A stretch of DNA of 64,000 nucleotides. Origin: Lepidodermella squamata. Its lineage: Eukaryota > Animalia > Gastrotricha. The notes beneath the pieces were generated by a model that saw only the letters and a program-made list of their open reading frames with translations, was not told where the DNA came from and did no database searches. The translations under genes and the position numbers were made by a program. The DNA lies in assembly GCA_047495785.1 (NCBI GenBank), contig JBLDXI010000019.1, forward strand, positions 806,001 to 870,000. Reading direction: 5' to 3'. Each line of letters begins with the position of its first letter. The stretch's first letter is position 1. Below are positions 18,712 to 45,155 of the stretch, piece after piece.

Positions 18712-19215
18712 TTAACGTCCAGATGAACCGAATCCGTTATCGCCACGGGTCGAATTTGCTGCTAGAGCGTTTTTCAATGGCCCCGTTACCGTTACTGCAG
18801 ATTCTAAGCGACCATATTTTAAACACACCAACTGGGTAATACGGTCGCCTATTTTAATCTTGTAAGGTGTTTTGCTGTTGTTTGCAAGGCAGACTACGAT
18901 TTTTCCGGTGTAGTCGGCGTCTTTAATTCATGAAAAATACAGATATTCATTAGTAATTTTCATTATTATTTGCTTCTTACCTATTACTCCAGCGACCGTA
19001 TCGATTCCATGGTTGATGCTCATTCCTGATCGACTGAATAGTTGTCCATAATATCCTCGTGGTAAACAGATTTTAATATCAGTTTGAATCAGTCCCCTGG
19101 TTCCAGGTTGCAGTGTCGTCTCTTCTGCTGAATAGATGTCCCAACCCACAGAGCCTTTAGTATGCTTTGTCGGTTCTTTAGCTTTGTTACTTGTTAGCTC
19201 TACCTTCAGCTTCAT
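18712..19215 (-). CDS. dut: dUTPase (2 exons: 19215-18981, 18920-18712; 147 aa)
   Basis: Removing the 60-nt GTAAGA...AAG intron gives all five motifs: GWDI, SRSG, GVIDADYTG, GDRITQL, RGDNGFGSSG. Confidence 0.93.
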
Positions 19216-19649
19216 ATTTTATAATTTATATTGTTACTGAGGTTCGATTTTTATGTGAGCGGCTACCTCCTTTCAGGCATATTGTTTTTGTAATTCAATC
19301 TTCCTTAAAAATGCATTAGGGCCTTTAGCTCTGTTGACCCCTCAGTGCTGGCTTTAATGCTTTTCATCAAAGATTCTTGGTATTGTATACATCCTCCTTA
19401 ATTGCTGTCGGTAATTCAATAAGAAAACATCATGTCAATAAATCTTATACATCCTCCCTAATTAAACAATGCGATTTTTTACTTATCAAAATAAAAAGCA
19501 ATTAGGATTTTTTACCCTTTACGGTGTAATTACCTTAAACAATTCAAACAAAACATCTCCCTGTTTTTTCCTTTTATGGAAATATCACTCAGACTATTTA
19601 AGAGAGATGCTTCAAGAATACACTTAGCATATTTCTTGAAGCAAGCTGG

Positions 19650-20414
19650 ATGCATCCTAAAGTCTACCATTTCGGCATAGTCGGCAACATTGGGGCGTAA
19701 GTCTCATATACTCCACCGAATAGAATTCTATTTAAAGTCTCTTGTTTTAGCGGGAAATCAACCTTAATCGAGGGTCTCACTAATCTACCTTCACTCAACC
19801 GTAAACTTCAGGGATATACCGCGTGGCCAATTTGCGAGCCTGTTCATCGTTGGGAGTCCTTTACTGATGACGATAAAACTAACATTTTGAAAGATTACTA
19901 TCAGATGAAAAATGCGTTCAACTTTCAAATTGTAGCCACGAGTGATATGTGCGGCCTTTATTCAGCCCCTAACCACAAACCTGAAATCTACGGGGCGCAT
20001 ACTATCGTTCTGCATGATCGAACGCCCTTCTGTTCTAAAAACGTCTTTATCCCATGTGCGTATGCATCCAAGCGCATAAATTCTATCGAATATCACGCTC
20101 TCATGAATTTGTATGATAATTTCGAGCCGAATTTTGTAAAAACTGAAGCTATTATTTACTTGCGCTCCTCTCCCCAAATAGCTTGTCAAAGAGCCGTAGC
20201 TAGAGCTCGGGGTTCTGAAATGCTATTATCACTGGATTATTTACGCCTCGTACATGAGTTTCATGAAAAAATGTGTACTGTTGAGACTACAAACAAATCC
20301 CTACCATGTCCCGTGCTTGTTATCGACACTGATAATTTGAATGCCTCTGAGGTTCTAAAGCAAGCTTCTCAGTATGTTGCCTCTCTTATCACGCCTGTAA
20401 TCTCTCAGACTTGA
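19650..20414 (+). CDS. Deoxynucleoside kinase (dNK/TK2 family; exons 19650-19696, 19751-20414)
   Basis: A 54-nt GTAAGT...TTTTAG intron splits the P-loop GNIGA|GKST. Also EPVHRW, FNFQ, DRT, IYLRSSP and lid RARGSE. Confidence 0.9.
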
Positions 20415-20424
20415 ATCCTCATTG

Positions 20425-20787
20425 ATGGATCCAACAAGACTTGTGCTCTCGAACAGCCAGATTTTAGACGCTGAATCTTTGCAATGTCCAATTTGTTTAT
20501 CTATCCTACTTAATCCTATTCAAACGCGCCCCTGTGGCCATTTATTTTGTACTAAATGTGTTCTCGCTATTTTTCAAAATTCAGCTCGAACAGTATGTTG
20601 CTGTCCACTTTGCCGCGAATCATTAACAGGGAAAGATTTCGTTAAACCCCCTGTAATTTTATCGAACATTATCTCGAATTTGATTTACAAATGCCAATAT
20701 TCTGATAAAGGCTGTCCCATTACTCTAACTTATGACCTCATTTTTGGGCATGAAAAGTTATGCCAATATAAAGAACCCATCCCTTAA
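20425..20787 (+). CDS. C3HC4 RING finger protein with TRAF/SINA-like zinc finger (putative E3 ligase)
   Basis: CPICLSIL...PCGHLFCTKC...CPLC followed by CQYSDKGC...GHEKLC. Confidence 0.85.
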   Translation: MDPTRLVLSNSQILDAESLQCPICLSILLNPIQTRPCGHLFCTKCVLAIFQNSARTVCCCPLCRESLTGKDFVKPPVILSNIISNLIYKCQYSDKGCPITLTYDLIFGHEKLCQYKEPIP

Positions 20788-20829
20788 AGTTTTACATTCT
20801 TATTTCATTAGATTTAATTTTCAATAATC

Positions 20830-21351
20830 ATGGCTGAGGCGATAGTAGAATCTGCTAACCAGACAGTCAATCATCACATGTCTAGTAACTTGGTCATTCA
20901 ACAGCATCCTCAGGATTCTAATCTCATCTACATAATGACTGATCGCAAAGATAAGAACGATAAGCCTAAAAAACTCGCCTTTAGACAAGACGAATTTCTT
21001 AGCCAGTTCGTTCCTTATTTTCGACCGCCGAATGATGCTTGGGTTGCTCAGGCTCAACTTGCCCTGCTATCTCACAACACAGGCTTTAAATTTTCGATGC
21101 ATGAATGCAAAATTGAAGTCTGTGTCTTTGTGCCATCATTTTCACCGATTCTTATAGATATACGCAGGTTTTATCTGGATGCTAAAGGTATTTACTTCAA
21201 ATTTACAGTAATAGCAATCTTTTTATGATTTAACTTTTTAGGAAATAAACAACCCTCAAGACAAGGAGTCTCTCTTGATGCAGCTCAGTTTCAAGACCTT
21301 GCAACTGGGGTGTTAACTGTTGCAGCGATGATTGAAACAGCCAATGAATAA
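20830..21351 (+). CDS. PC4/Sub1-like ssDNA-binding/coactivator domain protein (exons 20830-21187, 21242-21351)
   Basis: Removing a 54-nt GT-AG intron gives ILIDIRRFYLDAKGNKQPSRQGVSLDAAQFQDL, matching the PC4 core consensus (LIDIREY...KPGRKGISL...QW..L). Confidence 0.75.
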
Positions 21352-21537
21352 GCTAACACAAAACTTGACTAAAATGACTTACTGAATATTTATTTCAATC
21401 TATCCTTGTAATAAAGTTTTACCTCTTCCCAAATTCGATCAATTTTAAATTTTTAATCTTAGATTGTTATGGATAACTATAGTTTACAATACTCATTTAT
21501 TCGAAGTAATCGCCTGATTCATTCTACAAAATTCAAA

Positions 21538-24500
21538 ATGTTTTCTGTGGAGTACTTCATTCAGCCCGTAACATCCGACTTTGCCTCAACCTACATCAAC
21601 AGATATGGCCAATCTTCTAGTTCGCTTGGGCCGATGATTCAATTGTCTGGTGGCGCTGATGAACCTCGACTGGATAATATTCGATCATTTGTGCAGAACG
21701 TACCAGCCGACCAGGTGGCTAATATTGATTTGGAGACCCGCTTCAATATTCTGGCCAACTTCCTGTTCGATATTGTTGTAAATATCCATCGTGATTTACC
21801 TGTGAATTCCTTCTGCCGGCTAACACTGTACCACCCCGACTTGAAGATGCCTCTTAGCCTACCCTTCATGAAACGCGATCGGTTGCTGGAAATTTCAATT
21901 TTTGATCAACTGAGAAAAATATTACAGAGTAATGAAGAACTCTCATTTGCTGGTCGGTGGACAATTCGTCTCTGTGTCATTGATAACCCCAATGCAGATC
22001 TAGGTCAAATTGTTGGTGGTTCTCGGGCAGAGCGGGCTATAAACGAAACTTTGGACAAATTTTTTCTTCGCTCCAAATCGATCGTTAGAATCGGAGCGCG
22101 CAAGAATGAAACGAACAATCTTTGCATGGGCAGAGCTCTCATCACTGGAGTGGCTTTGGCTCACATGAAGGCGAATCCTACGGATCCATCTCTTCAAGCA
22201 ACCTTCAAATCGATACGTAGTACGCGAACCAATCGTCAATTTCGCGAAGCCACGGCGCTATATCAGAAAGCGGGCTTACCTCTCAACCTTCCAGCCTACA
22301 ATCTAGATGATCATTACTCAGCCCTGTGTTCGGCTATCGATCCTGAACATAATACTTACAGATTCGTAGTATACTCGTACGAATCACAGGATGTTATTAG
22401 GGAAATCCCAGAATTTGATCATCGCGTAAGCCTTGGGTTGCTTCCTGTTGTTCTACTGGTTTATCGCAACGACGTCTCTCAGCCCAACAGTCATCATTTT
22501 CATGTCATTGCGAATCTCAACTTTATGAAGGCCACTCTTAGCAATGCACAACGAATATGCCCCACTTGCTTTCAGACGAAAACGAGTACGGCTGTGCACA
22601 GATGCAAGTTGGCATGCTCTTCCTGCCGTAATTTTTACATGAAAAACCTGAATTTCACTTCTTTTATCATTAATATTATTTTAGGTGTATCAGGGAGCAT
22701 TTGCCGTGTGATTTCCAACACAGACCAACAAAACTACACGCGGTGTCCGCAATGTCGTGCAGGTCTGATGTTTTTAACCTTTTCATTATTATTCAGCTCT
22801 TTTTATGTTTTTAGTTTTGTATAGCGAACGTTGTAAGCAAAACCACAAATGTGCTAAAAAGAATCCATGCTTTAAATGCGGGAGGAAATTTGTACATTTT
22901 CTCAAGCATGAGGCTATGTGTCCCGGGCGGCGCTGTCACATTTGTCAGGAGCCTTTGAAAGCCAGCGACGAAGAAAATGGCACACACTTCTGCTTCATGA
23001 CTCCCTTGGTATACTCATTTTTTTCAGTCCAGCTTTTTTCAAAATACTGTGGTTGGTGTATTTTTAGCCCTTGAAACCGGCGAATAAACTGGAACGTTAT
23101 CGTAACCTAGTTTTTTGGGACACTGAGACATTTTCGCCATCACTTGCTGATAACAACAATGAGTTCCAAGTATGCCTTATCGTTGCAAAGGTCGTATGCA
23201 TACCTCACTGCATCGAAGCGAGGATTCAGCGATGCCATTCTAGTTGTGGACTTCATATTTTTTATGGAAGTCGTCCTCTGGAGGATTTCGTAAACTGGGT
23301 GCTTCTACCTATGAATTACCAGTCGATTTATTTGGCTCACAACTCAGCCAATTTCGATTCCTTATTATTACTGAAAGAAATTCAAACACGATGTTCTAAA
23401 GTGAAGATTCTTCAAAGGCAGGGATCTCTACTATGCATTGATTTCAAACAACAAAAAATCAGATTTTTGGATTCATATCTCTTTTTTCAATGCAGATTAA
23501 GGTAGGTTACCTAAGAAACACTAAGAAACTACATTGCTTACAGGTATTTGTTCAACAACAGGGATTTACCAGCAACAATGGGAATCCCAGACAAGAAAAC
23601 CTTCTTTCCTTACGTCTTATGCACTAAAGAAAAGTAAGTACATCATCAACTTCTTGAGCTATTGTGATTGAATTCGCTGTAATCCTTCGAGTTTCAATCT
23701 CGAATTCCCACAGCTGCCTAATATGATCTACTATGAGCCTGACAAAATGTCTCCTTCTGAAAGAGCAGAATTTCTAACTTTCTACAACGAAAACAAACTG
23801 AAACGGTTCAGTGTTCGCCACACGTTACTGCAATACTGCATACAGGATTGTCTAGTTTTGGAAAAGGCGTCAATCAAATTTCGGGCGCTAATGCTGGAGT
23901 TGTGTTCTACTGATGCCTTTAAAGAATGCATCACACTAGCTTCTCTCACAAGCACATGCTTCCGCAAGCTGTTTCTTACGAAGGATACATTACCTGTCAT
24001 CCCGACCGCTGGCTACTGTGGCAAGGATTCACACAGCAGGCTCTCGATAGCTTTTCTTCAATTTCTGATGGAGTCTGACCCTGAAACTTATGGTTCAATG
24101 AAACACGCTCAGAACTCACGTCAAGAAGTTCGAATATCTATACCTGGCCACCGTTATCCTTATCGCGTCGACGGTTTTGTTGCACGTCGTGATAAAATTC
24201 CGAGTGAACCCGATCTGATTGTCGAGGTTCATGGTTGTGCTGTCCATGGCTGCTTGCAATGCTTTGAGGCCTCACAACTAAATTTTCTATCTGGACAACC
24301 AAACGGCGTAGTTTACAAGCAAACCTTGGAACGTGAAGAGTTGTTTCGCTCGAATGGTTACATTCTTCAAAGCTTTTGGGAGCATGAAATTAGAGCTAGT
24401 TTCAAACAACACCCGAGAGCACAGGAGATTTATGATAATCTCACAATAGCTAATGTAATGGAGAGCCGTTCGTTTTTCTTTGGAGGTAACTGGAGGTTTT

Positions 24501-26324
24501 CCCTATTTAATCTTCGCGGGATTAAAACATCATGCCTACTTTTTAGGGCGGGTCGAAGCTTTTCGTTTAATGGCTATGATTGCCGAATCACACTCAACTT
24601 CAGGCGACCAAAATTTGGAAAAGATTGCTCAAATTTGTAAGGAAAGCGGGATGCAAACCAAGGACTTCTTATTTCCATCGCCCGATTATTCTATAATTTC
24701 CGCCGACTTCAACTCGTTATATCCAAGCTGTATGATGGATGGCTACTATGCAATAGGACCACCTAAAGTATCCACCTTGGATCTCAGATTAAACAACGAG
24801 AAACTGCAGGAGATTTATTCAAAGGAATCTTTTTTTGGTGTCGTACAAGCACGCGTAAGCTCTTCGCATCTACATATCGTCTCCCTGCTTTCATCATCAC
24901 CACATTATTTTGCTAGGTATTAGCGCCGAAAAACATCTGGCTACCTGTACTCTGCTTTCGTAGTAAACAAAACAAGCTCGTGTTCTCATGTTGCTATGCT
25001 TGTTCGTCGACTGCAAATCCAAACTTGTGCGTTTCAAGCCGTGAATGCACCCATTCTGATTATGAAAGGTCCTGGATTGGTTCGTATTGCTCTGTGGAAC
25101 TGAAGTACGCTACAGATGTTCATGGCTACAGATTGCTGGAAGTCTACGAGGTTAATAATTTTGTTTAGCCAACTCATGCATGGCTTCTATCAAGTTATTT
25201 TTTTTAGATATGGGAGTTCAAGAAGAGCAATACAATTTTCAGAGATTTCATTAAAAGATTCACCATTTTGAAGGCCGAATCCTCCGGCTGGCCGCCAAAC
25301 TGTGCTACTAGTGAACAAAAAGCACAGTATTTGGAGCAATGGGAACGCATTGGTATAACGATTGATAGCACCAAGTTGGATAAAAAGAACCCTGGGTTAC
25401 GCGCGATCGCCAAATTAGTTTTGAACAGCTTTTTTGGTCGATTTGCTATGAATTCTAATCTAGAGAGAACAGATTATATCAAATCCCCGTTTCTGCTTCA
25501 GCAAATGCTAAATAATCCAGCTTTGGAAATTGTGGATATTCAACCACTAGGCTTACTCATCAACTCTGATGATGTCTCTCGCTTGCGAATTGTAACACGG
25601 CCAACCAAAGATGCCGACGTTCCAAATGGATCCACCTCAGTTATAACAGCGGCCTTCGTAACAGCTAATGCTCGTGTGAAACTGGCTCGTGAGCTGTACC
25701 GAGTCGGCCCAAAAAGTGCTATCTACAGCGGTTAGAGAATAGCGCCGCTTATGCTACCAACATCTCTACGTTTTTTGTCTTTTGTTTTAGACACGGATTC
25801 AATTTTTTGCCTTCAAGGGCCTGGAATTACTAAAATTGAGTTCACACCCGTTCTTGGCGGCTTGGCGGATCAGCTTGATACAGGGCAACGCATCATTGCA
25901 ATGGTTGTACTGGGCTGTAAGGCATATGCCCTACTTTTTGCTGACGGCAAAGCCAAGCTAATGTTAAAGGTAATTGCTACTTGTTGTTACGCCCTCTGTT
26001 TTTTATTATTTACGTCACGCGCAGGGAATACGTCAAAGTTTTCATTCACGCAGTCTTCTCGATTTTTTCTTGTTCATCAAGCATGTAATACAAAGTCTCC
26101 ACGATAACGAAACCAGCGGAAGCGGGGGCCGGGGTGATAACAACAAAAACAGCGTCATCGCTGAATTGGATCAGACTCAGTTTAAAAAAGTGCATACTCC
26201 GTTATCGGAAATTCATTGTGTTCATATAACAAAAAAGATTCGTTTAACCTATGATAAACGTTGGCTACGCCCCGGCGATGCTTCCTTTCTAACTTATCCA
26301 CATGGATATAGCGCTGATCAATGA
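21538..26324 (+). CDS. polB: Protein-primed family B DNA polymerase (about 1400 aa; 10-11 exons) with N-terminal TP/OTU-like region and Vsr-like insertion
   Basis: Inferred introns: 22628-22684 (in-frame, tentative), 22763-22814, 23009-23067, 23502-23561, 23634-23691, 24486-24546, 24855-24916, 25151-25207, 25731-25790, 25970-26024. The spliced CDS (4206 nt) is open. Motifs: ExoI FWDTET, ExoII AHNSANFD, ExoIII YCIQDC, FFGGRVE, A DFNSLYP, B KLVLNSFFGRF, C YSDTDS, KGI, YDKR. Confidence 0.93.
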
Positions 26325-26331
26325 TCGATTA

Positions 26332-27483
26332 TTACATGAATAAACTCCAAAACCCTGTGCCAGCTTGAAACTTGTTGATTTTATTTATCTTACGCTGTGA
26401 CGTTCTTCGGAAAAGTTTTCCAGGTGGTGATATTTGTGTTTGATCAGTCATAGAACGTGGCTTTCTACCGCGCTTTTGACCCTTCCGTGGCGTTGCCGCT
26501 GCAGTTGCTGCTCCAGCTAGCTCAATTTCCATCGGTTCAGCGGCAGCGGCTTCTTCTTGTCTTTCTGCTTGATTATCATCATTATCAGCACCATCTTGCA
26601 GCTCTTCACTATTGCTGCCGCTGCTGTCCTCATCGCCGCTAAACGAAGACGACCCTGCTGTTGTGTTGCTGTCTCGAGGGGCCTGGGGGGTGCGCGCGCG
26701 GGGGGTCCCTCCTCTCGTAGGCAGCTGCTCATCATTAGGCCGATCAACAACAACATCATCGTGGCTGAGGACGGTCGTGGCTGCAGCGCTAGAAGTCGAT
26801 GATGTTTGCGGGGCAGCGAATAGAAAATCCATTTGAAGATCATCAAATTCATAATTGCTGCTATTATCAGTTGAAGGTCGTGGCGTTGTATTAGGTGAAA
26901 ACTGCTGCTGAAAGCCGCCAATACCCGAATCTCTGTTATAGTTGTTATAGCTAGGCCCGGCCGCTTGACCAAAATTACTAGATGTTAATTTAGTAGGTTG
27001 TTGGCGCGCAAGTTGTTGTTGCTGCTGTTTTTTTGGAGGAGGAGGAGGAGGAGGAGAAGAAGCAGAAGGAAGCGGCGGCGGCGGCAGCGGAGGAGGAGGA
27101 GGAGGAGGAGGAGGAGGAGGAGGAGGAGAGCGCGGCCTCGATTCTGCTCGATCTGCTGGTGCAGGCGACATTGGAATAGCGGCTGGCGGCTGGCTACTGC
27201 CTTGTAAAACTACCAGCTTCTTCAAATTCATAATCTCATGCATGAGTTCGTTACGTTTTCGCACTAAATCGGCTGAATTATCACTACTACTAGCGTTGTT
27301 TATCACATCCCGGTCTAAAGACTGTAATAGCTGCACTAGTTTGAAAAGCAGAGGATTGCTCAGCAATGTTTTAGCAGCAATCAAGTCGCTCGCGTTTGGT
27401 TGTTGTTGTTGTTGTTGTGCTGGAGTTGGCCCAGGTGTCGCAAGTGGAACAATAGTCATGCGCTGTGCATAGTTTCGCTGCAT
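26332..27483 (-). CDS. Polinton Pro/Gln/Ser-rich low-complexity protein with basic C-terminus
   Basis: 383-aa ORF in the structural block. PolyPro from a (GGA)n tract. Ends QAGTGFW, resembling an adenain-type cleavage site. Confidence 0.65.
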   Translation of the reverse strand: MQRNYAQRMTIVPLATPGPTPAQQQQQQPNASDLIAAKTLLSNPLLFKLVQLLQSLDRDVINNASSSDNSADLVRKRNELMHEIMNLKKLVVLQGSSQPPAAIPMSPAPADRAESRPRSPPPPPPPPPPPPPLPPPPLPSASSPPPPPPPKKQQQQQLARQQPTKLTSSNFGQAAGPSYNNYNRDSGIGGFQQQFSPNTTPRPSTDNSSNYEFDDLQMDFLFAAPQTSSTSSAAATTVLSHDDVVVDRPNDEQLPTRGGTPRARTPQAPRDSNTTAGSSSFSGDEDSSGSNSEELQDGADNDDNQAERQEEAAAAEPMEIELAGAATAAATPRKGQKRGRKPRSMTDQTQISPPGKLFRRTSQRKINKINKFQAGTGFWSLFM

Positions 27484-27486
27484 AGT

Positions 27487-27900
27487 TTAGATTCGAAGAA
27501 GCCTCTTGAGTTCTGAATAATCAAACTTTAGCCTGGGTGCAAAGGATTTCAATACAGTGGGTAAAACTGCAAAAAAGGAAGCTTTCGAAGCCTTATTTCG
27601 CCTATTGTTCTTGTTGCTATTAAGGCAGTGTCGAATAAAAACTTGCCGGTTGTGCTCGACCAAATTGACACCTTTTTGTTTCAATTTAGCCAAATCAGGG
27701 GCCAGAACAGTACTAGTGCTGCGAAGCCAATACAAGGCGCAACGGCTAAGAAATCGTATAAGGCTAACAGAGCTAGTTGCTAAAATATCAGCACGCTGAC
27801 CGGGGTGAGCATGCAATAACCATTTCAATGCAAGAAAAAGCCGCCGTTTTTTATCAAGACTGAACGATGGTGACGTTGCTGAGGTAATAACTTTATTCAT
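27487..27900 (-). CDS. Conserved basic Polinton ORF (PW-like/core-like)
   Basis: LLHAHPGQRADILATSSVSLIRFLSRCAL resembles, from memory, the small conserved basic ORF next to the ATPase in group 2 Polintons. Confidence 0.55.
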   Translation of the reverse strand: MNKVITSATSPSFSLDKKRRLFLALKWLLHAHPGQRADILATSSVSLIRFLSRCALYWLRSTSTVLAPDLAKLKQKGVNLVEHNRQVFIRHCLNSNKNNRRNKASKASFFAVLPTVLKSFAPRLKFDYSELKRLLRI

Positions 27901-27951
27901 TTAACGACGAAAATTGGGCGGCAATGAATCCTTTTATAATAGTACATATCA

Positions 27952-28795
27952 TCATTTCTTTGAGACTAAAATGTAAGCGTAACCAGGTTTACTACCGAAG
28001 CCATTGCTCGAACGAATGCGGAGATTATCCGGAGTAGTTGCACAATTATCCAGTAGCAGTGGCGTGTGAGATGATTCAGCAGTTGCTTGGTTCAACGCTT
28101 CAAGAAGGCCTCGCCAGCCCATTGGGGAACGCCGTTGTGCATATGATCTAAAGCTTGCAGAGTCGGAAATGCAGCGAAAATAGAATAAATAGTTTGCATT
28201 TTGCTATAGAATAGAAAATACATAGAAGAAAAAACAATAATTTTCTGAGGCAAACCAGAATTTCCCTGCTATTTTTTGCTCGAGTAAACAAAACTTGTTG
28301 AAGGAGAATGGTTGTCGTATTCAAGTGCCGCCCTCCTAAAAAAAGCTGTACCAGTGTTTCGTCTTCAGTTAATAGGCGATACACGTCATCAAATACTAGG
28401 CAACAGCGGGGCTGCGTCTCGTTATTGTCGTTGATATAATTTTTTAAGCTGAAGCTATCGCTACTGCTGTTTTTTGTGTCTGCTAAATTTACGAATTCAA
28501 CTTTAATTTTGTGAACTTGCAATGCAGCATCGGCTATGTCATTGTAAATGGGTTGGAAAGTAGAATAAAAATAGACAATTCTCTCAAAAGGAAGTTCAAA
28601 ACTGAATGCATCCTGTAGGATTTGAAGCACCAGACTTGTTTTACCGCTCCCCGACCTGAAGATGAGTAAATTACACTAAAATATATTGACTTTTATTTCC
28701 ATCGTCACTTACGGCCCAACAATGAGAATTGTGCTAGGGTGAACAAAAGGCAAAGCTTCATTTATGTTGCCAGGGCAGCAGCGCAAATCACTCAT
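27952..28795 (-). CDS. A32/FtsK-like packaging ATPase (exons 28795-28713, 28655-28256, 28203-27952; 244 aa)
   Basis: A 57-nt intron splits Walker A VGP|SGSGKT. Walker B LVFDD, GRHLNTTTILLQQ. After a 52-nt intron: SREIL|QNANYLF...TPDNLRIRS. Confidence 0.92.
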
Positions 28796-28798
28796 CCT

Positions 28799-29362
28799 TT
28801 ATAATCTAACGTTACAGGGTTTTATTCTTTCAAGTGGTCTCATAGATAGACCATAGTGGGAATATAATGTATTAAATTTATGATAAAGTACACAGTCTTT
28901 TATAAGCAAATTGTTCTTTGATCCAAGCTGATCAAAATGCCTCAAAATTTGGTGCATGTCTTTACCTCGCGCTCGAAGCATGCTGTAATATAGAGCCCAT
29001 AAGCCGCAGATTTGTGAAAAAACATGCTGGTAAGACCTATTGCAATGAATGTACGGCACTTCTGTTTGGCTATTCGCTTTCAAAAAGTTGTCGATATAGA
29101 GGTTATGATAGGAAGGGGAAAGGTTAAGGCTATCGAAAAACTCACAGGGCTCATCAGGATGCTGTGCGCTGTGAACAAACAGTGTGACCCAGTGCTTTCC
29201 TGTAGAATTGTATACATTTCCTGTGTTACAGATAATCAATTGTGGATTATTTTTCACAATAGGAAGCTGCTGTGGTAGCTGATCAGCGGCTACAACAAAA
29301 ATGTCAAACTTTTTTAGTACTGGATCAATCCGGATGAAATCTTCCAATTCATTGTTGTACAT
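28799..29362 (-). CDS. Adenain-like (Ulp1-fold) maturation cysteine protease
   Basis: GKHWVTL (His), EFFDS (Asp), YQHVFSQICGLWALYY (Gln/Cys). Confidence 0.9.
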   Translation of the reverse strand: MYNNELEDFIRIDPVLKKFDIFVVAADQLPQQLPIVKNNPQLIICNTGNVYNSTGKHWVTLFVHSAQHPDEPCEFFDSLNLSPSYHNLYIDNFLKANSQTEVPYIHCNRSYQHVFSQICGLWALYYSMLRARGKDMHQILRHFDQLGSKNNLLIKDCVLYHKFNTLYSHYGLSMRPLERIKPCNVRL

Positions 29363-29372
29363 GAAAAACTGC

Positions 29373-30863
29373 TTAAGAATCAACAATTACGTCACGCGTT
29401 CGTGTGATCTTAAAAAATTTGAATTTTAAGGCAATTTTAATTTTATGAAAAAAGATGATACCTCAAAAACTGAATCAGTTTCAGTTAATACTAACAGCTG
29501 AGTAACAATTGTTGTTTGAACAGCAAAACTCAACTCTACTCTGCAGGTACCTGTGCGTATAACTGAGTAATTTTGCAACGAGGAGTTGCGCGATAAATCG
29601 AAACCAAAAATTGTGAAGCCATTAATAAACTGATCCATAGTTAACGTAGATGCCTTGAAAGGGTTATCTGGGTTGATAGCATTGAGAAGCTCCAAATAGA
29701 CTCTGGTGACATCTCCATTTGCAAAATCCATTTCCAAGGGAGCTGTTGAGTGATGTAGTTCATTGCCCAAATAAATCGATATTCGGGATAGCTGGCTGTG
29801 TAATGCATTCAATGGATTTTTACCCGCCGTTCCATTCAGGGCGGAATCTTCAAAAAAACAGAAAAACATACGCCTTGGAAGCTTACCATTAATACATTGT
29901 GGTATCTGTTAAACCATTAGAGTTTTAAAAATTGACTTAGAAACGCGCGATGAGCAAACTTACACTGTAACTCAAAACACTACTTGGTATGTGAAAAAGC
30001 CTTGTTCGAACTCTCATTATAGGATATTTGGCGTTAGTTTTTTCCAGCGCACGCGTATGAGCAATCACTATGTCCGGCGACACAACAACAGCCCGGGCAA
30101 TAATTTTTGCAGATTCAATGACGATTGAGTGAGGATCAGCTGTGCTCGGCCCAACCAAAGCAAAATTGTTAGATGCCCTATAGAGCTTGATGCGGACTTC
30201 AACATTAGGTAGAAGTAGCCTATTACACAGCATAGGATCTGCAAACAGGCGTCCCAGGGTGCACACAGATTTCCCGCCCTGAACAATTTCCAACCGTTTT
30301 TTAAATCCCTCGTTTGAATTGTCAAAATTATCCAGTTTTTTAGCTGTATCAGGATACCAAAATTGTGTCTGTAATATCGTGTTTTTTGCATCAGTATTAT
30401 GAGACAAAAGCGTTGAAATATAGGCCCGATAAGCGTATAATGAATTTTGTTCACTTAAAAGTTGCCCATTTAGTGAAATCTCGCATGTTTTGAACATTGT
30501 GTGGTGGGCTAAACAAAGCGGGGCTTTTTGTAAATTTGTAGCCGAAAGACTAGCCTTATACTCGTTGTATGCATCGTCAGCTTCGCCAGCATTTTTCTTC
30601 CGAGCTTCAGAAGGGGTTCTAACTACTTTCCACTTGAGCATCAGTTGCATGCGTGACAGACACAAATAATCATTGTACGGGCCGATTTGAAACTCAATCA
30701 GGTTCGGTGAACTATTAAGAGGGGCAATTGGGTAAACATCTATACTTATTTGGTTTTCTTCAGCAAGCTGTGAAGGCGGTACAGTAAATAAATCTAAATC
30801 TGAAGATAATACTATTGAAGAGGCTGAGGCTGGGTGAACAAAATTATCTCCAAAGCCTTCCAT
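29373..30863 (-). CDS. Major capsid protein (double jelly-roll, hexon/PY-like; exons 30863-29964, 29905-29462, 29408-29373; 459 aa)
   Basis: SDLDLFTVPPSQ, LYAYRAYISTLLSH, AKYPI, GKLPRRMFF, KNPLN, GFTIFGFDLS, GTCRVELSF. Introns of 58 and 53 nt restore the frame and the C-terminus FE|ITRTRDVIVDS. Confidence 0.9.
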
Positions 30864-30896
30864 TACAAATTTGAAGAATCAAACGCAGCAATGGGC

Positions 30897-31439
30897 TCAA
30901 GACGCTTCAAATAGCACTGATTTAGTTGTTGCGCGTCTTTTCCTTTTATAAGCCTTTCTTTTTGTAGTAGAAGCACGGCGCCTACGTTTTGCAGTCACAC
31001 TACTAGTTTTACTAGGGCCACGACGACGGCGCCTTTTACGGCCACCTCCACCGCCTTGATGTTGCTTCAAAGCCGTTTCAGCAATATCCTTAGCCATGTT
31101 TAAGGCGCCTGAAGTGCCATGACGCTTAAGGGATTCGGTAAAACTAGGTCTAGCGCCCTCAGGTTGTTGCATATCACCTAATATTTTTTGGCCAGTAGAT
31201 AATGCTTGTTGAAAAATAGACGGAGCAATTACTGGGAAGAAATTTCTGAAAAAGGCACCTAATATATTTCCTATTCCCTGACCCCTATAATGATATGGAA
31301 ATTGAATTGTTGCCCCACGGAAATGGTCCAGGTTAGCACCCGCTCCAGCTCCATAGCCTGCTATCAGCGGGGAGGAGTGTTGGCGGAGAAAAAACTGCTG
31401 GTACTTGTCAACGTTTTGGTTAGAATAAGCTAGGGGCAT
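30897..31439 (-). CDS. Polinton virion core / membrane-lytic-like protein (amphipathic helix plus Arg-rich tail)
   Basis: YRGQGIGNILGAFFRNFFPVIAP amphipathic segment after a GxG site, then QGGGGGRKRRRRR basic tail. Confidence 0.7.
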   Translation of the reverse strand: MPLAYSNQNVDKYQQFFLRQHSSPLIAGYGAGAGANLDHFRGATIQFPYHYRGQGIGNILGAFFRNFFPVIAPSIFQQALSTGQKILGDMQQPEGARPSFTESLKRHGTSGALNMAKDIAETALKQHQGGGGGRKRRRRRGPSKTSSVTAKRRRRASTTKRKAYKRKRRATTKSVLFEAS

Positions 31440-31477
31440 CTTCGGTAATATTAATAATTAGAACTCAGCCACTTATA

Positions 31478-32698
31478 TTAATATAAGGCTCCGGTTTTTC
31501 GGCGAATATGAAGTAGCAATACAACTTTGCTACCATCCACAAAATCGATCAATGCCCCGTTATCGCGGCGGATTTGAACTTGAATTGAATCTATAAAATT
31601 GGCTTTTAAAGGTAAATATAGGCCCGAGTTATAAATCACTGTAAAATGTGATGACAAGTCTGAATTTGCCGTAGCAGAAGCCATCGTAGAATAGGTTATC
31701 ATTCGAAGGAGGCTAGCTTGGCAATCTCCAACAAAAACATCCGCTGCAACTGAGCAGTAAATGAACAGTGAGTTATTGCCATAATTCAACTGAATGTTGT
31801 ATTGAGCTGTAGCACTTTCTTCATAGCATGCATAAATAAAGGCAGGCGGTAAATCATTATCTTTGGTGATTACTGTTTGCTCAGAAAAATCAAAGTGCTG
31901 TGCTGAATTTACGCCTTCTTGATTTTCTACCGCCGCTGTCTCATTATTTGCATCCTCCTTAAGTTTTGGTCTGCTAGAAAGCCTAACAATCCCAACTGAG
32001 TTGAATAAAATGTGTGGATTTTCACGAATTTGGTGGCTCATATTCCACGCATATGCCAAGGCATACGTTGACTTTATATCAAAAGTGGAAACTTCATTAA
32101 ATTCTGGCTCGTCATTTTTTGGGGCCTTGGGAAAAATGAAAACTCCAGACGGTGTATTCTGTTCTATTGGAGACACAAAACCTAAGAGGCCAGCAGAATC
32201 TGAAGGTATAAACATAGAATATGGCCATTTACAGGTAATTTTAGTTTTTTTGTTGACTGAATCATAATGAGCAAAAATAGAGCCATTACTACTTGAGATG
32301 GATATTTTTTCATTAAAGTGATCGATTAGTTTGGTTATATTCGCAAAATATTCACCTCCGAAATTTACTTTGTTAATAAAGCCAGTTTCCCATGGATTGT
32401 TGAAACTTTTCATCCGATGTGGCAAAGAGCCAGGATTTGTTAAATAATTAGCAATAATGTCGTTTTTAAAAGATTTCAGCCAGTTACAATCAAGCACATA
32501 GACTGTATGACGATCAATGCTACTCCACCTAACAGGAATTGTAGCCTCAAGTAGGGCTACTTCATAAGCACGGCAATCGGGTACGCAAATTGGGACAGGG
32601 AGAGCAACTTGATAATCCGACGGAGTATTCGCCGGATGTTGAGAATATGAGGCATTCGAGGGTAAATAAATAAAGAAGTCCTCCTGGATGCTAAGCAT
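31478..32698 (-). CDS. Minor capsid protein (penton, PX-like)
   Basis: N-terminal FFIYLPSNAS...NTPSDYQVALP...YEVAL and C-terminal SLFIYCSV..VGD..SLLR..YLPL..IDSIQVQI...LLHIRR. Confidence 0.85.
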   Translation of the reverse strand: MLSIQEDFFIYLPSNASYSQHPANTPSDYQVALPVPICVPDCRAYEVALLEATIPVRWSSIDRHTVYVLDCNWLKSFKNDIIANYLTNPGSLPHRMKSFNNPWETGFINKVNFGGEYFANITKLIDHFNEKISISSSNGSIFAHYDSVNKKTKITCKWPYSMFIPSDSAGLLGFVSPIEQNTPSGVFIFPKAPKNDEPEFNEVSTFDIKSTYALAYAWNMSHQIRENPHILFNSVGIVRLSSRPKLKEDANNETAAVENQEGVNSAQHFDFSEQTVITKDNDLPPAFIYACYEESATAQYNIQLNYGNNSLFIYCSVAADVFVGDCQASLLRMITYSTMASATANSDLSSHFTVIYNSGLYLPLKANFIDSIQVQIRRDNGALIDFVDGSKVVLLLHIRRKTGALY

Positions 32699-32894
32699 TT
32701 GTTATGTTATCCTTATCTATCTTTTCTAAAGTAAGGATTGCGCTGTTGCCAAAAGGGGGGAGCTTAGTTTTGAATAAATAGTTTGAAATTTCTATAAGCC
32801 AAACGGTTATTAGAAGGAAAAAAATGTAGGCCCCTACACGCACAGATGGCTTTTGTAGGAAAGCTAAGAGTGGAGTCGTAGGAACTCTATTCAT
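32691..32894 (-). CDS. Small putative membrane protein
   Basis: 67-aa ORF packed between integrase and penton with overlapping start/stop codons; one hydrophobic segment. Confidence 0.5.
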   Translation of the reverse strand: MNRVPTTPLLAFLQKPSVRVGAYIFFLLITVWLIEISNYLFKTKLPPFGNSAILTLEKIDKDNITNA

Positions 32895-34102
32895 GAGGCC
32901 AAGGTTTTGATCTCGTTTGCATCAATCCAACTAGCGGCTTCAATCGGCCAGTTTTGCCATTTCACAAGAGCCTGTTTCTTGCCATTTATAGTGCGATGCT
33001 TCAGAACTTTTTCTATTAAATATGTTTCTTGCGGATGTGCTATCTGAAGCTGCCAATCGTAAAAACTACCTTGAATACGCTTATTCAGAGTATCACGGAG
33101 ATAATACTTGTCGGGGATGGTACAAGTATCTATGCGGTCGATAAAAAAATATTCTTCAGTAAAAATGAAATCTCCTTCTTTGTGAAATAAATCCTTTACA
33201 CGACTAATTCTAACACAATCACCGACAGAAAAAGTCGGTTTGTATAGTAAATTCTTGCGCTTTTCAAGCATCAATTGATCTCTTTTTCCAAAAACATTAT
33301 TGTAAGCAACCAAATTTATAGGATCTTCTGGGGAAGCTAGCCATAATTCTAACGGGGCAACCCTAGTGCTGCGATTTTTCATTTGATTGTAAGACGCTAA
33401 GAAAAAAGGTAAGTAATCGATGTAACGCAGCGTATGATTTGCAATTTGATGCCTCGAAATAGTTCTACGAAGCCAACGGTTGAAAATTTCTATGGGTGAA
33501 CACTTGAACATGGAGGTTGTAGTGTAATAATAAACATTGAATTTTTTAAATATTTTTTTAGCTTCTTTGTTGATAAATTCTCCGCCAGAATCTGTAGTGA
33601 AAGAGCGGCAACGCAAATCAGGTGTTAGGCTGCTCAAAAAATTACTGATCTTCTCAGCAGTGTAATTTCCTTCTTTGTTAAGTAAGGGAATACAGAAAGC
33701 ATAACGCGTAAAACAGTCTTTGATTGTAAGTAAATAGCGGGTTCCATCATTATCTTGGCTTGAATCTTGAACTTCAAGAAGATCACCTAGAAAGAGGTCA
33801 CTTCTAGCATAAACTTCATATTGCATGAATTGCTTCCGGTTTCTTACACTTAGTGGTTTATATAATGAATATGTTCGATCATGGCTCATAATCTCAGCTA
33901 GTTTTTTATGAGTAAGGGAATTTCTCAGCTCTAAGGGTAATGTAGCTTTAAGTGTTGAGTATAATCTGCGCAGGCCTTGAAATGATCCAACATGTTTCGG
34001 ATCATTATAGAAGCTCAAAACAAACGATTTCAAGTCTGACCTGTGGTTTATTTTAGCATCTCCTTCAGCTAGACGTCTCGCATTGTGTTTATTACGTGGC
34101 AT
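32891..34102 (-). CDS. int: Retroviral-like (RVE) integrase with C-terminal chromodomain
   Basis: LGDLLE...YLLTIKDCFTRY, TTDSGGEF, PIEIFNRWLR, FSVGDCVRIS. Chromodomain YLIEKVLKHRTINGKKQALVKWQNWP...SWI. Confidence 0.95.
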   Translation of the reverse strand: MPRNKHNARRLAEGDAKINHRSDLKSFVLSFYNDPKHVGSFQGLRRLYSTLKATLPLELRNSLTHKKLAEIMSHDRTYSLYKPLSVRNRKQFMQYEVYARSDLFLGDLLEVQDSSQDNDGTRYLLTIKDCFTRYAFCIPLLNKEGNYTAEKISNFLSSLTPDLRCRSFTTDSGGEFINKEAKKIFKKFNVYYYTTTSMFKCSPIEIFNRWLRRTISRHQIANHTLRYIDYLPFFLASYNQMKNRSTRVAPLELWLASPEDPINLVAYNNVFGKRDQLMLEKRKNLLYKPTFSVGDCVRISRVKDLFHKEGDFIFTEEYFFIDRIDTCTIPDKYYLRDTLNKRIQGSFYDWQLQIAHPQETYLIEKVLKHRTINGKKQALVKWQNWPIEAASWIDANEIKTLAS

Positions 34103-34105
34103 GAC

Positions 34106-34375
34106 CTAATTCTTCTTTATAGCTAATTTACGGCAAGTAGGGACAACCGAACAATTAGCCATGTGGCTAAATAAATCACCGTTTAAGTGGAATAATAAAT
34201 CATTTATATTATATAACATCCGCTCAGTAGACTCGACAAGTTGCCGCAGGTGAAGGAGTTCGGCTTGAGTATTGCGAACTTCCATAACAGCGAAAAAGCT
34301 GATTAAAATGGTAACCAGGGATAGCAGCAATAGGATCGGTAAAACAGCACGCGGAATATCTGTTGTTTGATGCAT
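34106..34375 (-). CDS. Small TM/coiled-coil protein
   Basis: Hydrophobic helix followed by a heptad-like segment; 3 bp from the integrase start. Confidence 0.5.
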   Translation of the reverse strand: MHQTTDIPRAVLPILLLLSLVTILISFFAVMEVRNTQAELLHLRQLVESTERMLYNINDLLFHLNGDLFSHMANCSVVPTCRKLAIKKN

Positions 34376-34539
34376 AATAAATTACGAAGACTTTAAAAAC
34401 GGGGAAATTTACCGATAGCCATATTTTTATTTCTGCTGCGAATTTTGAAAATTGATAGATAATGATGAAAGTAGAAATAATGATTTTAGCTTAAAAAAAG
34501 ACGGCACGCGATTAATCTTCCCTCATTCATTAAATCATT

Positions 34540-35319
34540 TTATTGTTGTTTGATATACAGAAAAAAAGGCGCCAATTTAACAAATGCTATTTTTATAAGA
34601 GATAACGAAAAACAGCCGCTCATAATCATTTTTCCAGTGTGAAACAGTGTGGCAGATACATTTAACTTTGGTTCATTTTCATTAGTGCTGACTTTGGAGA
34701 AAACACGTATACGCAACCCAGGAAAAAATTCTGGTTGGTAAACGCATATTTTAGGAAATTGAAAAGCTAGCAGGCTAAGATTGACAGTTTTATGTAAATC
34801 GTAGAACAATACTATATTAGTAATTATTGGGTCACGGATTATCAACCGTCGATTAACAATTTTTCTGAGTGTAGCTTGAAGAACTCCAAAAGCAGTAACA
34901 CAATTCGAGGCTGTTTTGGTACCACTACAAATTATAGCTCCGGATGAAAATAATAAAAACGTCGCGTTAAAAGCAGGTACTTTATAGAACAAAGCACTCG
35001 ACATTTTTTTTGGGTTATATTTTGCACAAGGTAAAATTAGGGCTAGACTATCTAAATTAAATAGAAAATTTGACCTTGATTTAGCCATAATATTTGAAAT
35101 AGAGTAATCAATATCATATTGTATATTATTTACTTCCATATTTAATGGTGGGGATTTCAATAGAAAAAAAGGTTCAGTGCTAGATTGTAGCTTTAAATCA
35201 ACAGGATAGGATATAGTCAAATTTATGATCGTGGTCGACTGTGATGCGGCTGATTGAAGGCTTGTAACATACTTGATTTCAGCTGTTTCTGTTTGAACTT
35301 TGCGATAGGTTGAGGGCAA
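34540..35319 (-). CDS. TATA-binding protein (TBP)-like protein; start uncertain (first ATG of the core at 35139)
   Basis: Two TBP repeats: SNIMA...AKYNPKKM...ATFLLFSSGAIICSGTK and TNIV...VYQPEFFPGL...ATLFHTGKMIMSG...AFVKLAPF. Confidence 0.88.
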   Translation of the reverse strand: MPSTYRKVQTETAEIKYVTSLQSAASQSTTIINLTISYPVDLKLQSSTEPFFLLKSPPLNMEVNNIQYDIDYSISNIMAKSRSNFLFNLDSLALILPCAKYNPKKMSSALFYKVPAFNATFLLFSSGAIICSGTKTASNCVTAFGVLQATLRKIVNRRLIIRDPIITNIVLFYDLHKTVNLSLLAFQFPKICVYQPEFFPGLRIRVFSKVSTNENEPKLNVSATLFHTGKMIMSGCFSLSLIKIAFVKLAPFFLYIKQQ

Positions 35320-35651
35320 ATCATGACCAAAAAAGAGGCGACAGAATCTTGCTTTCGTGACTCATGATTGGTAATTGGAACAGCTGGTTTATTTTTCGCC
35401 TTGCATGGCGTTTTCGCCGATTTAGCAACTGATTTCTTCTCAGTACCTATGACTTTTTTCTGAATTTTATGTTTAGCATTGCGTTTCGGTTGATTACGAA
35501 CCGCAGTTTTTGCTAATCTAGAGGCTGATGTTTGTTCAACAGGTTCCTTGGTAAACGTACTCGTATTCGGTTCATTCAGGTTTATTGGTACGAAATCATT
35601 GTTAGAAAAAAACAATGGAGAAGCCGGAGATGAATTGAAGAAAGCTTCCAT
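35223..35651 (-). CDS. Basic low-complexity ORF, possibly the N-terminal part of the TBP-like gene
   Basis: Lys-rich ORF overlapping the TBP frame; junction unresolved. Confidence 0.4.
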   Translation of the reverse strand: MEAFFNSSPASPLFFSNNDFVPINLNEPNTSTFTKEPVEQTSASRLAKTAVRNQPKRNAKHKIQKKVIGTEKKSVAKSAKTPCKAKNKPAVPITNHESRKQDSVASFLVMICPQPIAKFKQKQLKSSMLQAFNQPHHSRPRS

Positions 35652-35819
35652 AAATTCAGTAAGAAGAATAATATTCAAAGTTCTTGCGTTTGAAATGAAA
35701 AATGATCGAATGACGGAAGCCGGCCGCGGTGATTGGTTGGAGTTGCTGAGCCCCAGAACCTTCTGATTAGGAATGAATAAATAACAAAGGCATTATATAA
35801 ATAAAATAAACTGACCAAA

Positions 35820-36626
35820 TTAGGTCGAAGAGCTGTTGTTGAAAGGTAAGACGGTAGCGACAGGTTGTAGTGCGATGGAGCGTTGCATGATGCCCGGCCA
35901 TTTACTATTCGCACCTTCCTGCTGACCATTAAGAACATCGATGACTGATGCCCATGGAATTTTCTGAGCGTGTTGATAGGGTGGAGGTACGACGTTCTGC
36001 ATTTCTACTGAGACCCTACGACCTGCCCGAAGTAAAAGGTAGAATATGTGCCGCAGGTTTACGCTGACACCATTAAAGTTTTTTAACAAATCGTAAAATA
36101 AATGTTGGATGTAGATATATCGGCCTTCGGTGTAGGTAGGGTGTGCCGTTAGGCCATACCAGAAACTTTCTTCCAGGCCAGACACAATAATAGGGTTAGG
36201 GCTATCGTCGAGGCAATCATCCAAAAGGTAATCACTTTCAGTAAAAATAATTGAGTGACAAATGGACGACCATAAATCATCCTGGCGAACAAGGAGCGTG
36301 GTAGTATCATTTAGGATGCTCTTCCATAAATCATGCCCAACGATGGAAGCACAGGTAGCTAAATTATATTCGGCAAAATGTTGAAAATTCGTGCCATCGT
36401 GGGTTGATGGGAAGAGACGAGCAACGGCTCTTTTGTAGCCGAGATAAACATGATCGATAGTAATATGTTGGCCTTTCGAGTTGGCAATCAAATCGAATAT
36501 GGCGACTTCAGCGAATGTAATGCGTCCAGAGAGGGTATTTAGTGATATATTTAATGATTTCGGAGGAAAAAGTAAATCTTCTCGGTAGAAAATCGCTTCA
36601 TAAGATTCATCATAGCCAATAATCAT
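35820..36626 (-). CDS. Hypothetical Polinton protein (268 aa)
   Basis: Long ORF with globular composition inside the element; no recognised motif. Confidence 0.6.
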   Translation of the reverse strand: MIIGYDESYEAIFYREDLLFPPKSLNISLNTLSGRITFAEVAIFDLIANSKGQHITIDHVYLGYKRAVARLFPSTHDGTNFQHFAEYNLATCASIVGHDLWKSILNDTTTLLVRQDDLWSSICHSIIFTESDYLLDDCLDDSPNPIIVSGLEESFWYGLTAHPTYTEGRYIYIQHLFYDLLKNFNGVSVNLRHIFYLLLRAGRRVSVEMQNVVPPPYQHAQKIPWASVIDVLNGQQEGANSKWPGIMQRSIALQPVATVLPFNNSSST

Positions 36627-36710
36627 AGCAACTTATTTGACCTTGCTATCCCTACCTTAATCTTTGCTTTTATTCGATTTTCCTTGAGTAAAAAAATGTT
36701 TCTTATATTT

Positions 36711-36950
36711 TTTAGATTACAGTTAAGTTGGATTGATAGGAGAAAGTAAAGTTTATTTACAAAACAAGTTAATGGACATATCAGGAAAGAAAGGAGTATT
36801 TATAAATGCTAATGGCCAAAGTAAAAAATATTTATTATATTTTAGATTAAAGTTAAGGGGGATTGATAGGAGAAAGTAATGTTTATTTACAAAAAAGGTT
36901 AATGGAAAGTAAGGTGTATTTATATAAGCTAATGGACAAAGCAGGAAAAA
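36711..36950. repeat. About 130-bp tandem duplication in a divergent intergenic region, with TATA-like boxes
   Basis: TTTAGATTA.AGTTAAG..GGATTGATAGGAGAAAGTAA.GTTTATTTACAAAA at 36711 and 36841. Confidence 0.8.
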
Positions 36951-37019
36951 AGATGAGCTAGCTTGAGTTCTTAGATTACTGTATCTAATCAAGTATCTTT
37001 TTGGAAACTAAGAAAATTG

Positions 37020-37295
37020 ATGGAAGCAGAAGACATGTAAGTTTGGTTCTTTTTTAAAAAATCTTGAATAAATTCTGTTATGTTTAGTCGTGAACGCTTA
37101 TATCAAGCACTGCTAAGCATTGACCATCTGCAACGAGCAATGACAGCAGCTATAAACGAAATGTTGAACACACAATTGGAGGTTGAACAATTGATCAATG
37201 ATGCATCACGATTTATGATAGCAACTCGAGCAAGAGATCAGGCATGCAGCCTAGATTGTGGTGATTGGAATTGTAATTACTGTTACAAAGATTGA
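37020..37295 (+). CDS. Small coiled-coil protein with C-terminal Cys cluster (exons 37020-37036, 37088-37295)
   Basis: 51-nt GTAAGT...TTTAG intron gives MEAEDIRERLYQ...CSLDCGDWNCNYC. AATAAA at about 37305. Confidence 0.6.
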
Positions 37296-37476
37296 AAAAT
37301 TAAAAATAAATTATCATGTGTGCATTTTTTATATTACAAATTAATTCCCAGAAAGAATGCAAAAGCATGACTCATAATAGTTTTAGAAAAAAAGTATGCC
37401 CGCTGTATATTTTATCATAAACATTGCGTACATTTATGGGGCAACGGATAAAACGCACTTATATATTTATGTGAAA

Positions 37477-37661
37477 CGGTTATAGTAAAAATGACCGTAG
37501 TGCTATTACTGATACAACGCTCGTATATTTATGCCAAATGGCTATAGTAAAAATCGCCGTACTGCCATTACTGATCCCAAATTGCGTATATTTATACCAA
37601 ACGGCTATAGTAAAAATCGCCGTACTGCCATTACTGATCCAAAGTTCCCATCCTTACTACT
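37477..37661 (-). repeat. Right terminal inverted repeat
   Basis: Reverse complement of the left TIR; inner units diverge. Confidence 0.92.
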
Positions 37662-38185
37662 CATTTCAAGGTGATAGGTGACAAGTAAAAAGTCTTTTGT
37701 TTTTGCCTCTTCATTCACGTCGTAATAAACCGCTTTTTTTACTTGTCACCCGTGACATTGAAACGGATGTAAACAAGCCTTAATCCGAGTTTTTCAACGC
37801 CGCTAACGATATGTATTGCAATCCACGGGCAACTGGATTTCTCCTTCTAAATTCAAATGATGTTTCTTGGTTAAGGACATGGTCTGGGAGCTTTCTAGTT
37901 GAAAGCAGATCACTCACTTTACGTTCTCTATTATCGCGCATGTTTCCCACTGAAATCCGGTAAAGTTTTATTTCGGTGTAAAATGGGTCCGCTTTAGTGC
38001 GTTGTAATTTTTTATTTTTTTTTACGATGCGTGACAACAGCGAACACCAGGGAACAGCAAAATCCTGCTGCAAATGCTCCCCTCTATTTCGAGTGAAAAG
38101 GGAGGTTGACATAACATGCCCACTAATAGGGAGTTCAATAGAAAAATATTTCAGATCGGAGAGTTCTTAGTTCAGAGTTAAATAG

Positions 38186-44726: not shown

Positions 44727-44796
44727 TTGATAACTTTTTATAATCTGGCATGCATTCCAATTAGCCTTCATCCAAATACTTTCTAACAGTGTTTAT

Positions 44797-45090: not shown

Positions 45091-45155
45091 TTTTTTGTTT
45101 ATTCCACAATAAAAAATTTCACATCAATGATTACTTATACATTTTTATATCGATG

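Follow-up and report, generated by a model that had tools for sequence, protein, structure and literature searches.

The presence of a gene for a TATA-binding protein (TBP) inside a Polinton/Maverick element raises the question of what a 19-kb integrating element would do with a general transcription factor. The gene lies in a 64,000-nucleotide stretch of Lepidodermella squamata DNA (contig JBLDXI010000019.1, positions 806,001 to 870,000; hereafter the window), to which all coordinates refer. A preliminary description of the locus had proposed that the protein might supply or redirect basal transcription for the element's own promoters, or be used at the element's termini.

The element and its gene content

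Like other Polintons/Mavericks (adintoviruses), the element has terminal inverted repeats (TIRs) with AG...CT ends, each about 216 nt long, a 6-bp target-site duplication (TSD), and genes for a protein-primed DNA polymerase B (pPolB), an rve integrase with a chromodomain and an A32-like packaging ATPase; a weakly matched protease and putative capsid proteins may add to this shared set. Unlike them, it adds TBP, a PC4-like protein, a dUTPase, a deoxynucleoside kinase and a RING-finger protein, and many of its genes contain short spliceosomal introns. Its features are:

18253..18258 (+), left TSD CATTTC, 6 bp, a perfect match to the right copy
18259..37661 (no strand), whole Polinton/Maverick element, 19,403 bp, ends AGTAGT...ACTACT
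18259..18474 (+), left TIR, 2.6 copies of a 63-bp repeat, with TATAAATA at 18324 and 18387
18712..19215 (−), dUTPase, one intron
19650..20414 (+), deoxynucleoside kinase, one intron, start read from the sequence
20425..20787 (+), RING-finger protein, from the Pfam search
20830..21351 (+), PC4/Sub1-like gene, with a 54-nt intron (21188-21241) whose joint is present in sequencing runs X2 and X3
21469..26324 (+), pPolB region, several exons, PF03175 on four pieces, span from the ORF list
26332-27483 (−), Pro/Gln-rich ORF without known family (ORF list, Pfam search)
27487-27900 (−), ORF without known family (ORF list, Pfam search)
27952..28795 (−), A32-like packaging ATPase, PF04665 at E=3e-7, several exons, extent inferred
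28799..29362 (−), cysteine protease, adenain-like by position, weak PF02902 match (E=0.034)
29373..30863 (−), putative major capsid protein, several exons
30897..31439 (−), basic-tailed ORF (ORF list, Pfam search)
31478..32698 (−), putative minor capsid protein
32891..34102 (−), rve integrase with C-terminal chromodomain, PF00665 at E=1.7e-5, below cut-off
34106..34422 (−), small hydrophobic ORF directly downstream of TBP, with an inferred 53-nt intron (34360-34412)
34540..35139 (−), TBP-family gene, 199 aa from the ATG, two lobes, 8-aa C-lobe insert
35223..35651 (−), Lys-rich 142-aa ORF, putatively coding, overlapping the open frame upstream of TBP
35820..36626 (−), 268-aa ORF upstream of TBP, with an intron (35763-35815) past its stop and a poly-A-like end at 35566
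37444..37661 (−), right TIR, 2.9 copies of the 63-bp repeat, with TATAAATA at 37596
37662..37667 (+), right TSD CATTTC, 6 bp, a perfect match to the left copy

Several of these assignments are tentative. The PC4 family match is weak (Pfam E=0.13 on exon 2, below cut-off). We take 29373..30863 and 31478..32698 to be capsid genes from their position and a resemblance only; neither has a Pfam match, and the putative major capsid ORF has two unnamed homologues at 29-30% identity. The basic-tailed ORF between them is presumably core-protein-like. The Pfam scan of the element ORFs detected neither an RNA polymerase family nor a TFIIB family, the partner in the orthogonal TBP-TFIIB system of giant viruses. 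The 268-aa ORF, for which no Pfam family and no useful Atlas match was found, may hold a very divergent TFIIB.

Other observations concern the element's architecture. Introns of 53-60 nt are carried by many of its genes, four of them seen as joints in the cDNA-like runs, and the intron at 35763-35815 sits just past a stop codon. The 268-aa ORF is covered by contigs of both cDNA-like runs and is a candidate regulator adjoining TBP. Upstream of it, two 84-bp direct repeats (85% identical) at 36693-36906 are a likely early enhancer or promoter. Near the right TIR, a 75-aa plus-strand frame with C-terminal cysteines (37068-37295) has no Pfam match and is covered in X2.

A two-lobed TBP-family protein

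The 199-aa product of the gene at 34540..35139 is a two-lobed TBP-family protein. Pfam family PF00352 matches the ORF over two stretches (E=1.1e-24, 86.5 bits against a cut-off of 22.9), and a PDB sequence search returned 35 TBP chains, the best at E=1.8e-19. An AlphaFold2 model built on a 123-row alignment has a pLDDT of 93.3 and a pTM of 0.84, although it leans on that TBP alignment, the pLDDT of a single-sequence prediction being only 38. In Foldseek comparisons the model reaches a TMq of about 0.80-0.82 against eukaryotic TBP structures and is closer to these than to predicted viral ones (BFVD, TM ≤0.74). The HMM search and structure prediction that the preliminary description had called for thus agree with its assignment: the saddle fold is matched, PF00352 is above cut-off, and both lobes of the bipartite core belong to a gene inside the 18259-37661 element, between its TIRs.

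The preliminary description had given the gene as 34540..35319. Its 3' end stands, but the 5' end was set about 180 nt too far upstream: 35319 falls on a TTG of the TBP frame, which is open upstream to 35361. Around the start ATG, positions -3 and +4 are A and G, and the stop codon is overlapped by AATAAA. The ORF is intronless whereas neighbouring genes have introns, and its GC3 is 0.245 against 0.46-0.54 in the flanking host ORFs. Two routes to an N-terminal extension were considered and found no support. For splicing, no intron candidate of host size (53-60 nt) joins the upstream sequence or the 142-aa ORF to the TBP frame, and for frameshifting, the sequence downstream of a possible slippery T-run forms no stable structure (-4.6 kcal/mol).

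Copy depth and transcription

TBP is clearly part of the typical copy in a multi-copy family of near-identical elements. In run X1, the bin over TBP has a depth of 2283, within the range of the other internal element bins (1533-2772), while flank sites have 100-128; TBP therefore matches the rest of the element at about 15-20 times the flanks, although contig depth in X1 is not copy number and X1 is possibly the window's own source. No variant rows fall within the TBP gene in this run. The preliminary description had allowed that the gene might be a one-off captured host copy evolving neutrally; it is instead intact, deeply diverged and present at element-wide depth.

Runs X2 and X3 were judged to be cDNA because of their joints. 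X2, which behaves as cDNA, has at least four GT..AG joints that are absent from X1, among the joints listed, together with one poly-T and one adapter-like end. A single X2 contig spans 34413-35576 and covers the entire TBP ORF with 0 differences. Its other 258 letters fit in length the stretch past a 53-nt GT..AG intron at 34360-34412, from which we infer that the TBP-covering RNA is spliced there. Since this contig extends to 35576 and includes several upstream ATGs, the transcript may be read-through RNA from the upstream gene, its strand, start and level being beyond what contigs resolve. The integrase has nearly no cover in X2 (depth 0-0.07), which argues against DNA carry-over in that run but is no evidence of silence. 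The TBP ORF is uncovered in X3.

Conserved and altered residues

The comparison set for the element TBP was the 110 cellular TBPs that remained of rows P0156-P0273 (118 in all) after a motif filter had dropped eight, with yeast numbering anchored via an insect TBP that matches yeast 56-239 at equal length. Host TBP/TRF sequences and named TRF2 sequences lay outside this comparison and outside the trees below. Identity to the cellular TBPs is 25-30%, whereas these average 74% among themselves, and 39 of the 92 near-invariant cellular columns are kept. As in cellular TBPs (PF00352; PDB 1cdw, 1ytb), the protein is a two-lobed saddle (TM about 0.8) with N69, F116, N159, E188, F190, P191 and F207 common to both; T112, L114, V161, R196 and K211 are kept as well. 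Unlike cellular TBPs, it has the 8-aa C-lobe insert, almost no N-terminal extension from the ATG, and a helix-2 basic patch that is mostly gone. The residues changed are Q68S, E93K, F99M, Q158T, E186Q, L189F, I194R, V203S and L205T.

Three of the four DNA-intercalating phenylalanines that define the canonical set are retained. As the preliminary description had stated, the motifs LLFSSG, EFFPG and TLFHTG supply them (F64, F139 and F166, equivalent to yeast F116, F190 and F207), and the first position, yeast F99, is occupied by M46. The stirrup motif PEFFPG is present, but only E188 of the canonical glutamate pair that contacts TFIIB is kept, E186 being replaced by Gln. Both F99 and E186 are near-invariant in cellular TBPs; with Met and Gln in their place, the protein may bend DNA and bind TFIIB less strongly.

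The DNA-binding face is better preserved than the partner surfaces. Helix 2 has two basic residues in the element TBP against five in four of four animal TBPs, so that the basic N-lobe patch of canonical eukaryotic TBP, which serves TFIIA, TAF1, Mot1 and Brf1, is mostly lost. Position 93 is Glu in 110/110 cellular TBPs and Lys here. We read the loss of the helix-2 basic patch and E93K as virus-like because they match the pattern described for viral TBPs in the available text of PMC7221094. The altered-specificity yeast mutant TBPm3 carries changes at three sites, I194, V203 and L205 (PMC1636458, available part), and all three are altered in the element TBP (I194R, V203S, L205T). Cellular TBPs have I or V at 194 (110/110), V at 203 (108/110) and L at 205 (110/110); a basic residue at 194 also occurs in other short divergent TBPs (17/122 of the match list). 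The unbroken ORF at 25-30% identity, with 39 of 92 near-invariant columns kept, leads us to infer purifying selection on the DNA-binding core.

Relatives and origin

The best matches among 1.84 billion proteins share about 25-40% identity over the matched stretches and are archaeal, eukaryotic or unnamed, in a mixture. In phylogenetic trees the element TBP falls on the eukaryotic side as a long branch, its neighbours being short TBPs without names, and lies outside the tight animal TBP clade. It pairs with one such sequence, P0040, at an SH-aLRT of 97 in a 30-row quick tree that carries a long-branch warning, and an AU test did not reject its grouping with the animal TBP clade (p=0.18). Recent capture was considered as an origin and ruled out by the divergence from cellular TBPs.

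No related Polinton locus was found in IMG/VR with TBP, capsid, integrase and P0131 queries, nor in JGI metagenomes with TBP and P0040 queries. Alignment scans gave 16 TBP-bearing loci, none with a Polinton gene by BLAST, and those inspected resemble giant or archaeal viruses. A degenerate DNA pattern retrieved 66 loci, none with TBP, GenBank phages gave no match, and an Atlas search with the element TBP returned TBP clusters only. On one giant-virus-like contig (L001:8905-12052), genes for a nucleoside kinase and a TBP lie side by side with a capsid-like ORF.

TATA boxes before the late genes

The minus strand of the element carries the following candidate boxes:

27931..27939 (−), TTATAAAAG box, 39 nt before ORF 27900
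28897..28905 (−), TTATAAAAG box, 110 nt upstream of the start codon of the packaging ATPase
30943..30951 (−), TTATAAAAG box, 88 nt upstream of the start codon of the putative major capsid gene
32789..32797 (−), variant box TTATAGAAA, 99 nt upstream of the start codon of the putative minor capsid gene

All three TTATAAAAG boxes of the element precede capsid or packaging-side genes, at 39-110 nt. The shorter motif TATAAAAG occurs three times in the element (38.8 kb counting both strands), always on the coding strand and always preceded by T, 38-109 nt upstream of three late start codons, those of ORF 27900, the ATPase and the putative major capsid gene. It is present in three of eight late-gene windows, where shuffled sequence averages 0.08 (p=5e-4), and in none of the eight windows before other genes, of which one has an approximate position; the motif was chosen once the sequence had been inspected. 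One TATAAAAG lies in the 44.6 kb of flanking DNA. A looser pattern, TATA[AG][AG], is found in 6/8 late windows (p=0.009) and also in 3/8 other-gene windows.

TATAAAAG is the canonical TATA box, known as the adenovirus major late box, and could be read by host TBP too. The boxes therefore point to TATA-driven late promoters, but would suit either the host or the element TBP as reader. For the suggestion that the element TBP serves the element's own promoters, the restriction of TTATAAAAG to late genes is circumstantial support, and the canonical nature of the box speaks against it.

Proposed function

We give an even chance to the reading that the element TBP is a promoter factor for the element's own late genes, working with host Pol II. 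In this mechanism, the protein would bind and bend the late TTATAAAAG boxes via its kept Phe/Asn/Pro face, and the changes at the TBPm3 sites would shift reading at the 5' end of the box. The half-kept stirrup (E188 kept, E186 replaced by Gln) would recruit host TFIIB and Pol II, with the PC4-like protein as a possible co-activator, and the disappearance of the helix-2 basic patch would allow escape from control by host TAF1, Mot1 and TFIIA. Telling against a late factor, the exact box stands in only 3/8 late windows, and a viral TBP is argued to be unlikely to bind the TFIIB of its host and usually to come with a viral one (PMC7221094, available text), which was not detected among the element ORFs scanned.

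The same TFIIB considerations would suit a decoy or repressor that binds host or own TATA boxes, or soaks up host factors, without recruiting TFIIB. Such a protein might damp host genes, or keep the late genes quiet, with activation left to host TBP, and E186Q, F99M and the canonical late box would all be in keeping with it. Both versions seem unlikely to us: E188 is retained along with the remaining stirrup (PEFFPG), while a sponge would depend on the regulator-binding basic patch, which has been lost. The better preservation of the DNA-binding face than of partner surfaces would also fit an architectural DNA bender at the termini, which binds TATAAATA in the TIR repeats and aids protein-primed replication, excision or packaging. 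For the use at the termini raised in the preliminary description, the sole sequence evidence is the occurrence of this 8-mer in the 63-bp repeats at 18324, 18387 and 37596; it also occurs at three non-TIR sites, and one TIR repeat has C for its first T. TBP is moreover unmentioned in the Polinton core-gene literature examined and so is not generally needed at termini, and the late-gene boxes have a simpler transcriptional reading, making this role distinctly improbable.

TBP lies at the end of the element, beside an uncharacterised expressed ORF and the 84-bp promoter-region repeat, and TATAA[AG] precedes 3/8 non-late genes, as might be expected if the protein drove early or accessory genes, or Pol III-type transcription, instead of late genes. 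The sole significantly placed box, however, precedes late genes, and the patch of basic residues that Brf1 and Brf2 use has been lost; we consider this very unlikely. It is hardly credible that the gene is a recently captured host TBP or paralogue decaying neutrally as cargo. The AU test leaves room for a grouping with animal TBPs and host TBP and TRF genes were outside the comparison set, but a protein 25-30% identical to all cellular TBPs, with its frame intact and its core kept, encoded by an intronless gene of low GC3 among intron-bearing neighbours and present at element-wide depth, does not resemble such cargo.

If the element TBP is a late-gene promoter factor, a further step can be put forward only tentatively, and we doubt it somewhat: that this animal Polinton lineage has a minimal late switch, consisting of a TBP retuned at three specificity residues and stripped of host-regulator surfaces, with a PC4-like co-activator. 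The switch would read TTATAAAAG with host Pol II, dispensing with a viral TFIIB or polymerase. If true, this would be the most compact case of a virus replacing a general transcription factor, and would offer a direct approach to how endogenous Polintons enter a virion-making phase. The literature examined contains no description of how capsid genes are switched on in integrated Polintons; an element TBP and a sharply placed late box would make this testable with one small protein and a 9-bp site. A natural TBP variant with all three specificity positions changed and the regulator patch gone would also be useful for work on TBP structure and function, and virus-encoded TBPs would extend from giant viruses and herpesviruses to 19-kb integrating elements.

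Comparison with known viral TBPs

Most giant viruses and poxviruses with TBP-like proteins encode their own RNA polymerase. In large DNA viruses, viral TBPs keep the DNA face, lose the N-lobe regulator patch and vary at the stirrup glutamates; they are usually accompanied by a viral TFIIB and are argued to be unlikely to bind host TFIIB (PMC7221094, available text). The element TBP resembles these giant-virus and poxvirus proteins in keeping the DNA face and losing the N-lobe regulator signature, though they are no closer to it in sequence than cellular TBPs are. Most of those viruses, poxviruses excepted, encode a TFIIB-like partner according to the same source, whereas neither this partner nor an RNA polymerase was detected in the 19-kb element.

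The closest functional analogue of the proposed role is the vTBP of beta- and gammaherpesviruses, which is proposed to serve late promoters with host Pol II (KSHV ORF24; PMC12529657, available part). As described there, ORF24 is large, binds Pol II through its N-terminal domain, possesses a further DNA-binding domain, acts in a six-protein complex and reads TATTWAA. Unlike these vTBPs (ORF24/BcRF1/UL87), the element TBP consists of a 199-aa core and nothing more, with the canonical TATAAAAG as its candidate box.

The preliminary description had placed TBP outside the core Polinton genes. This agrees with the core-gene literature examined, in which neither TBP nor TATA is mentioned, but a precedent exists. 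In Starrett et al. 2021 (PMC8502044, legend to Fig. 5), a TBP is labelled in MELD viruses with an adintovirus-like PolB; the label belongs to a section on non-animal datasets and has no analysis in the portion of the text available, and the supplement, as available, has 0 mentions of TBP. Those viruses share with the present element a TBP-like gene, a midsize linear dsDNA genome and a Polinton-type PolB, but ours is an integrase-bearing, TSD-flanked Polinton in an animal-like genome. TBP is also reported as sporadic in mirusvirus-like algal elements (PMC10675990, available part). Beyond the Starrett et al. label, the literature search returned no study of a Polinton TBP, and a full-length one with a candidate target is apparently unstudied in the literature searched, though with precedent.

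Insertion site and surrounding DNA

The genes flanking the element look animal, with ligand-gated channels and ANF-receptor and Sushi domains identified by Pfam. Two similar genes for ANF-receptor-domain membrane proteins (15374-17767 and 38186-40558) bracket the element as a tandem host gene pair, followed by clusters of ligand-gated channel genes (41976-46400) and Sushi-domain genes (47194-63661). The insertion target itself (18200-18258 and 37662-37820) is a short, very high-copy repeat with inverted ends, at which X1 shows many empty-site variants and a depth above 50,000 at 37777-37781.

Elsewhere in the window, a 352-aa ORF at 9865-10923 has no Pfam match and in our view resembles a retrotransposon Gag with a CCHC knuckle. 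Between two host genes at 58010-58487 lies a long palindrome whose 157-nt arms are 99% complementary with no spacer; the arms hold TTAGGG-type repeats. It may be a foldback element or an interstitial telomere-like insertion.
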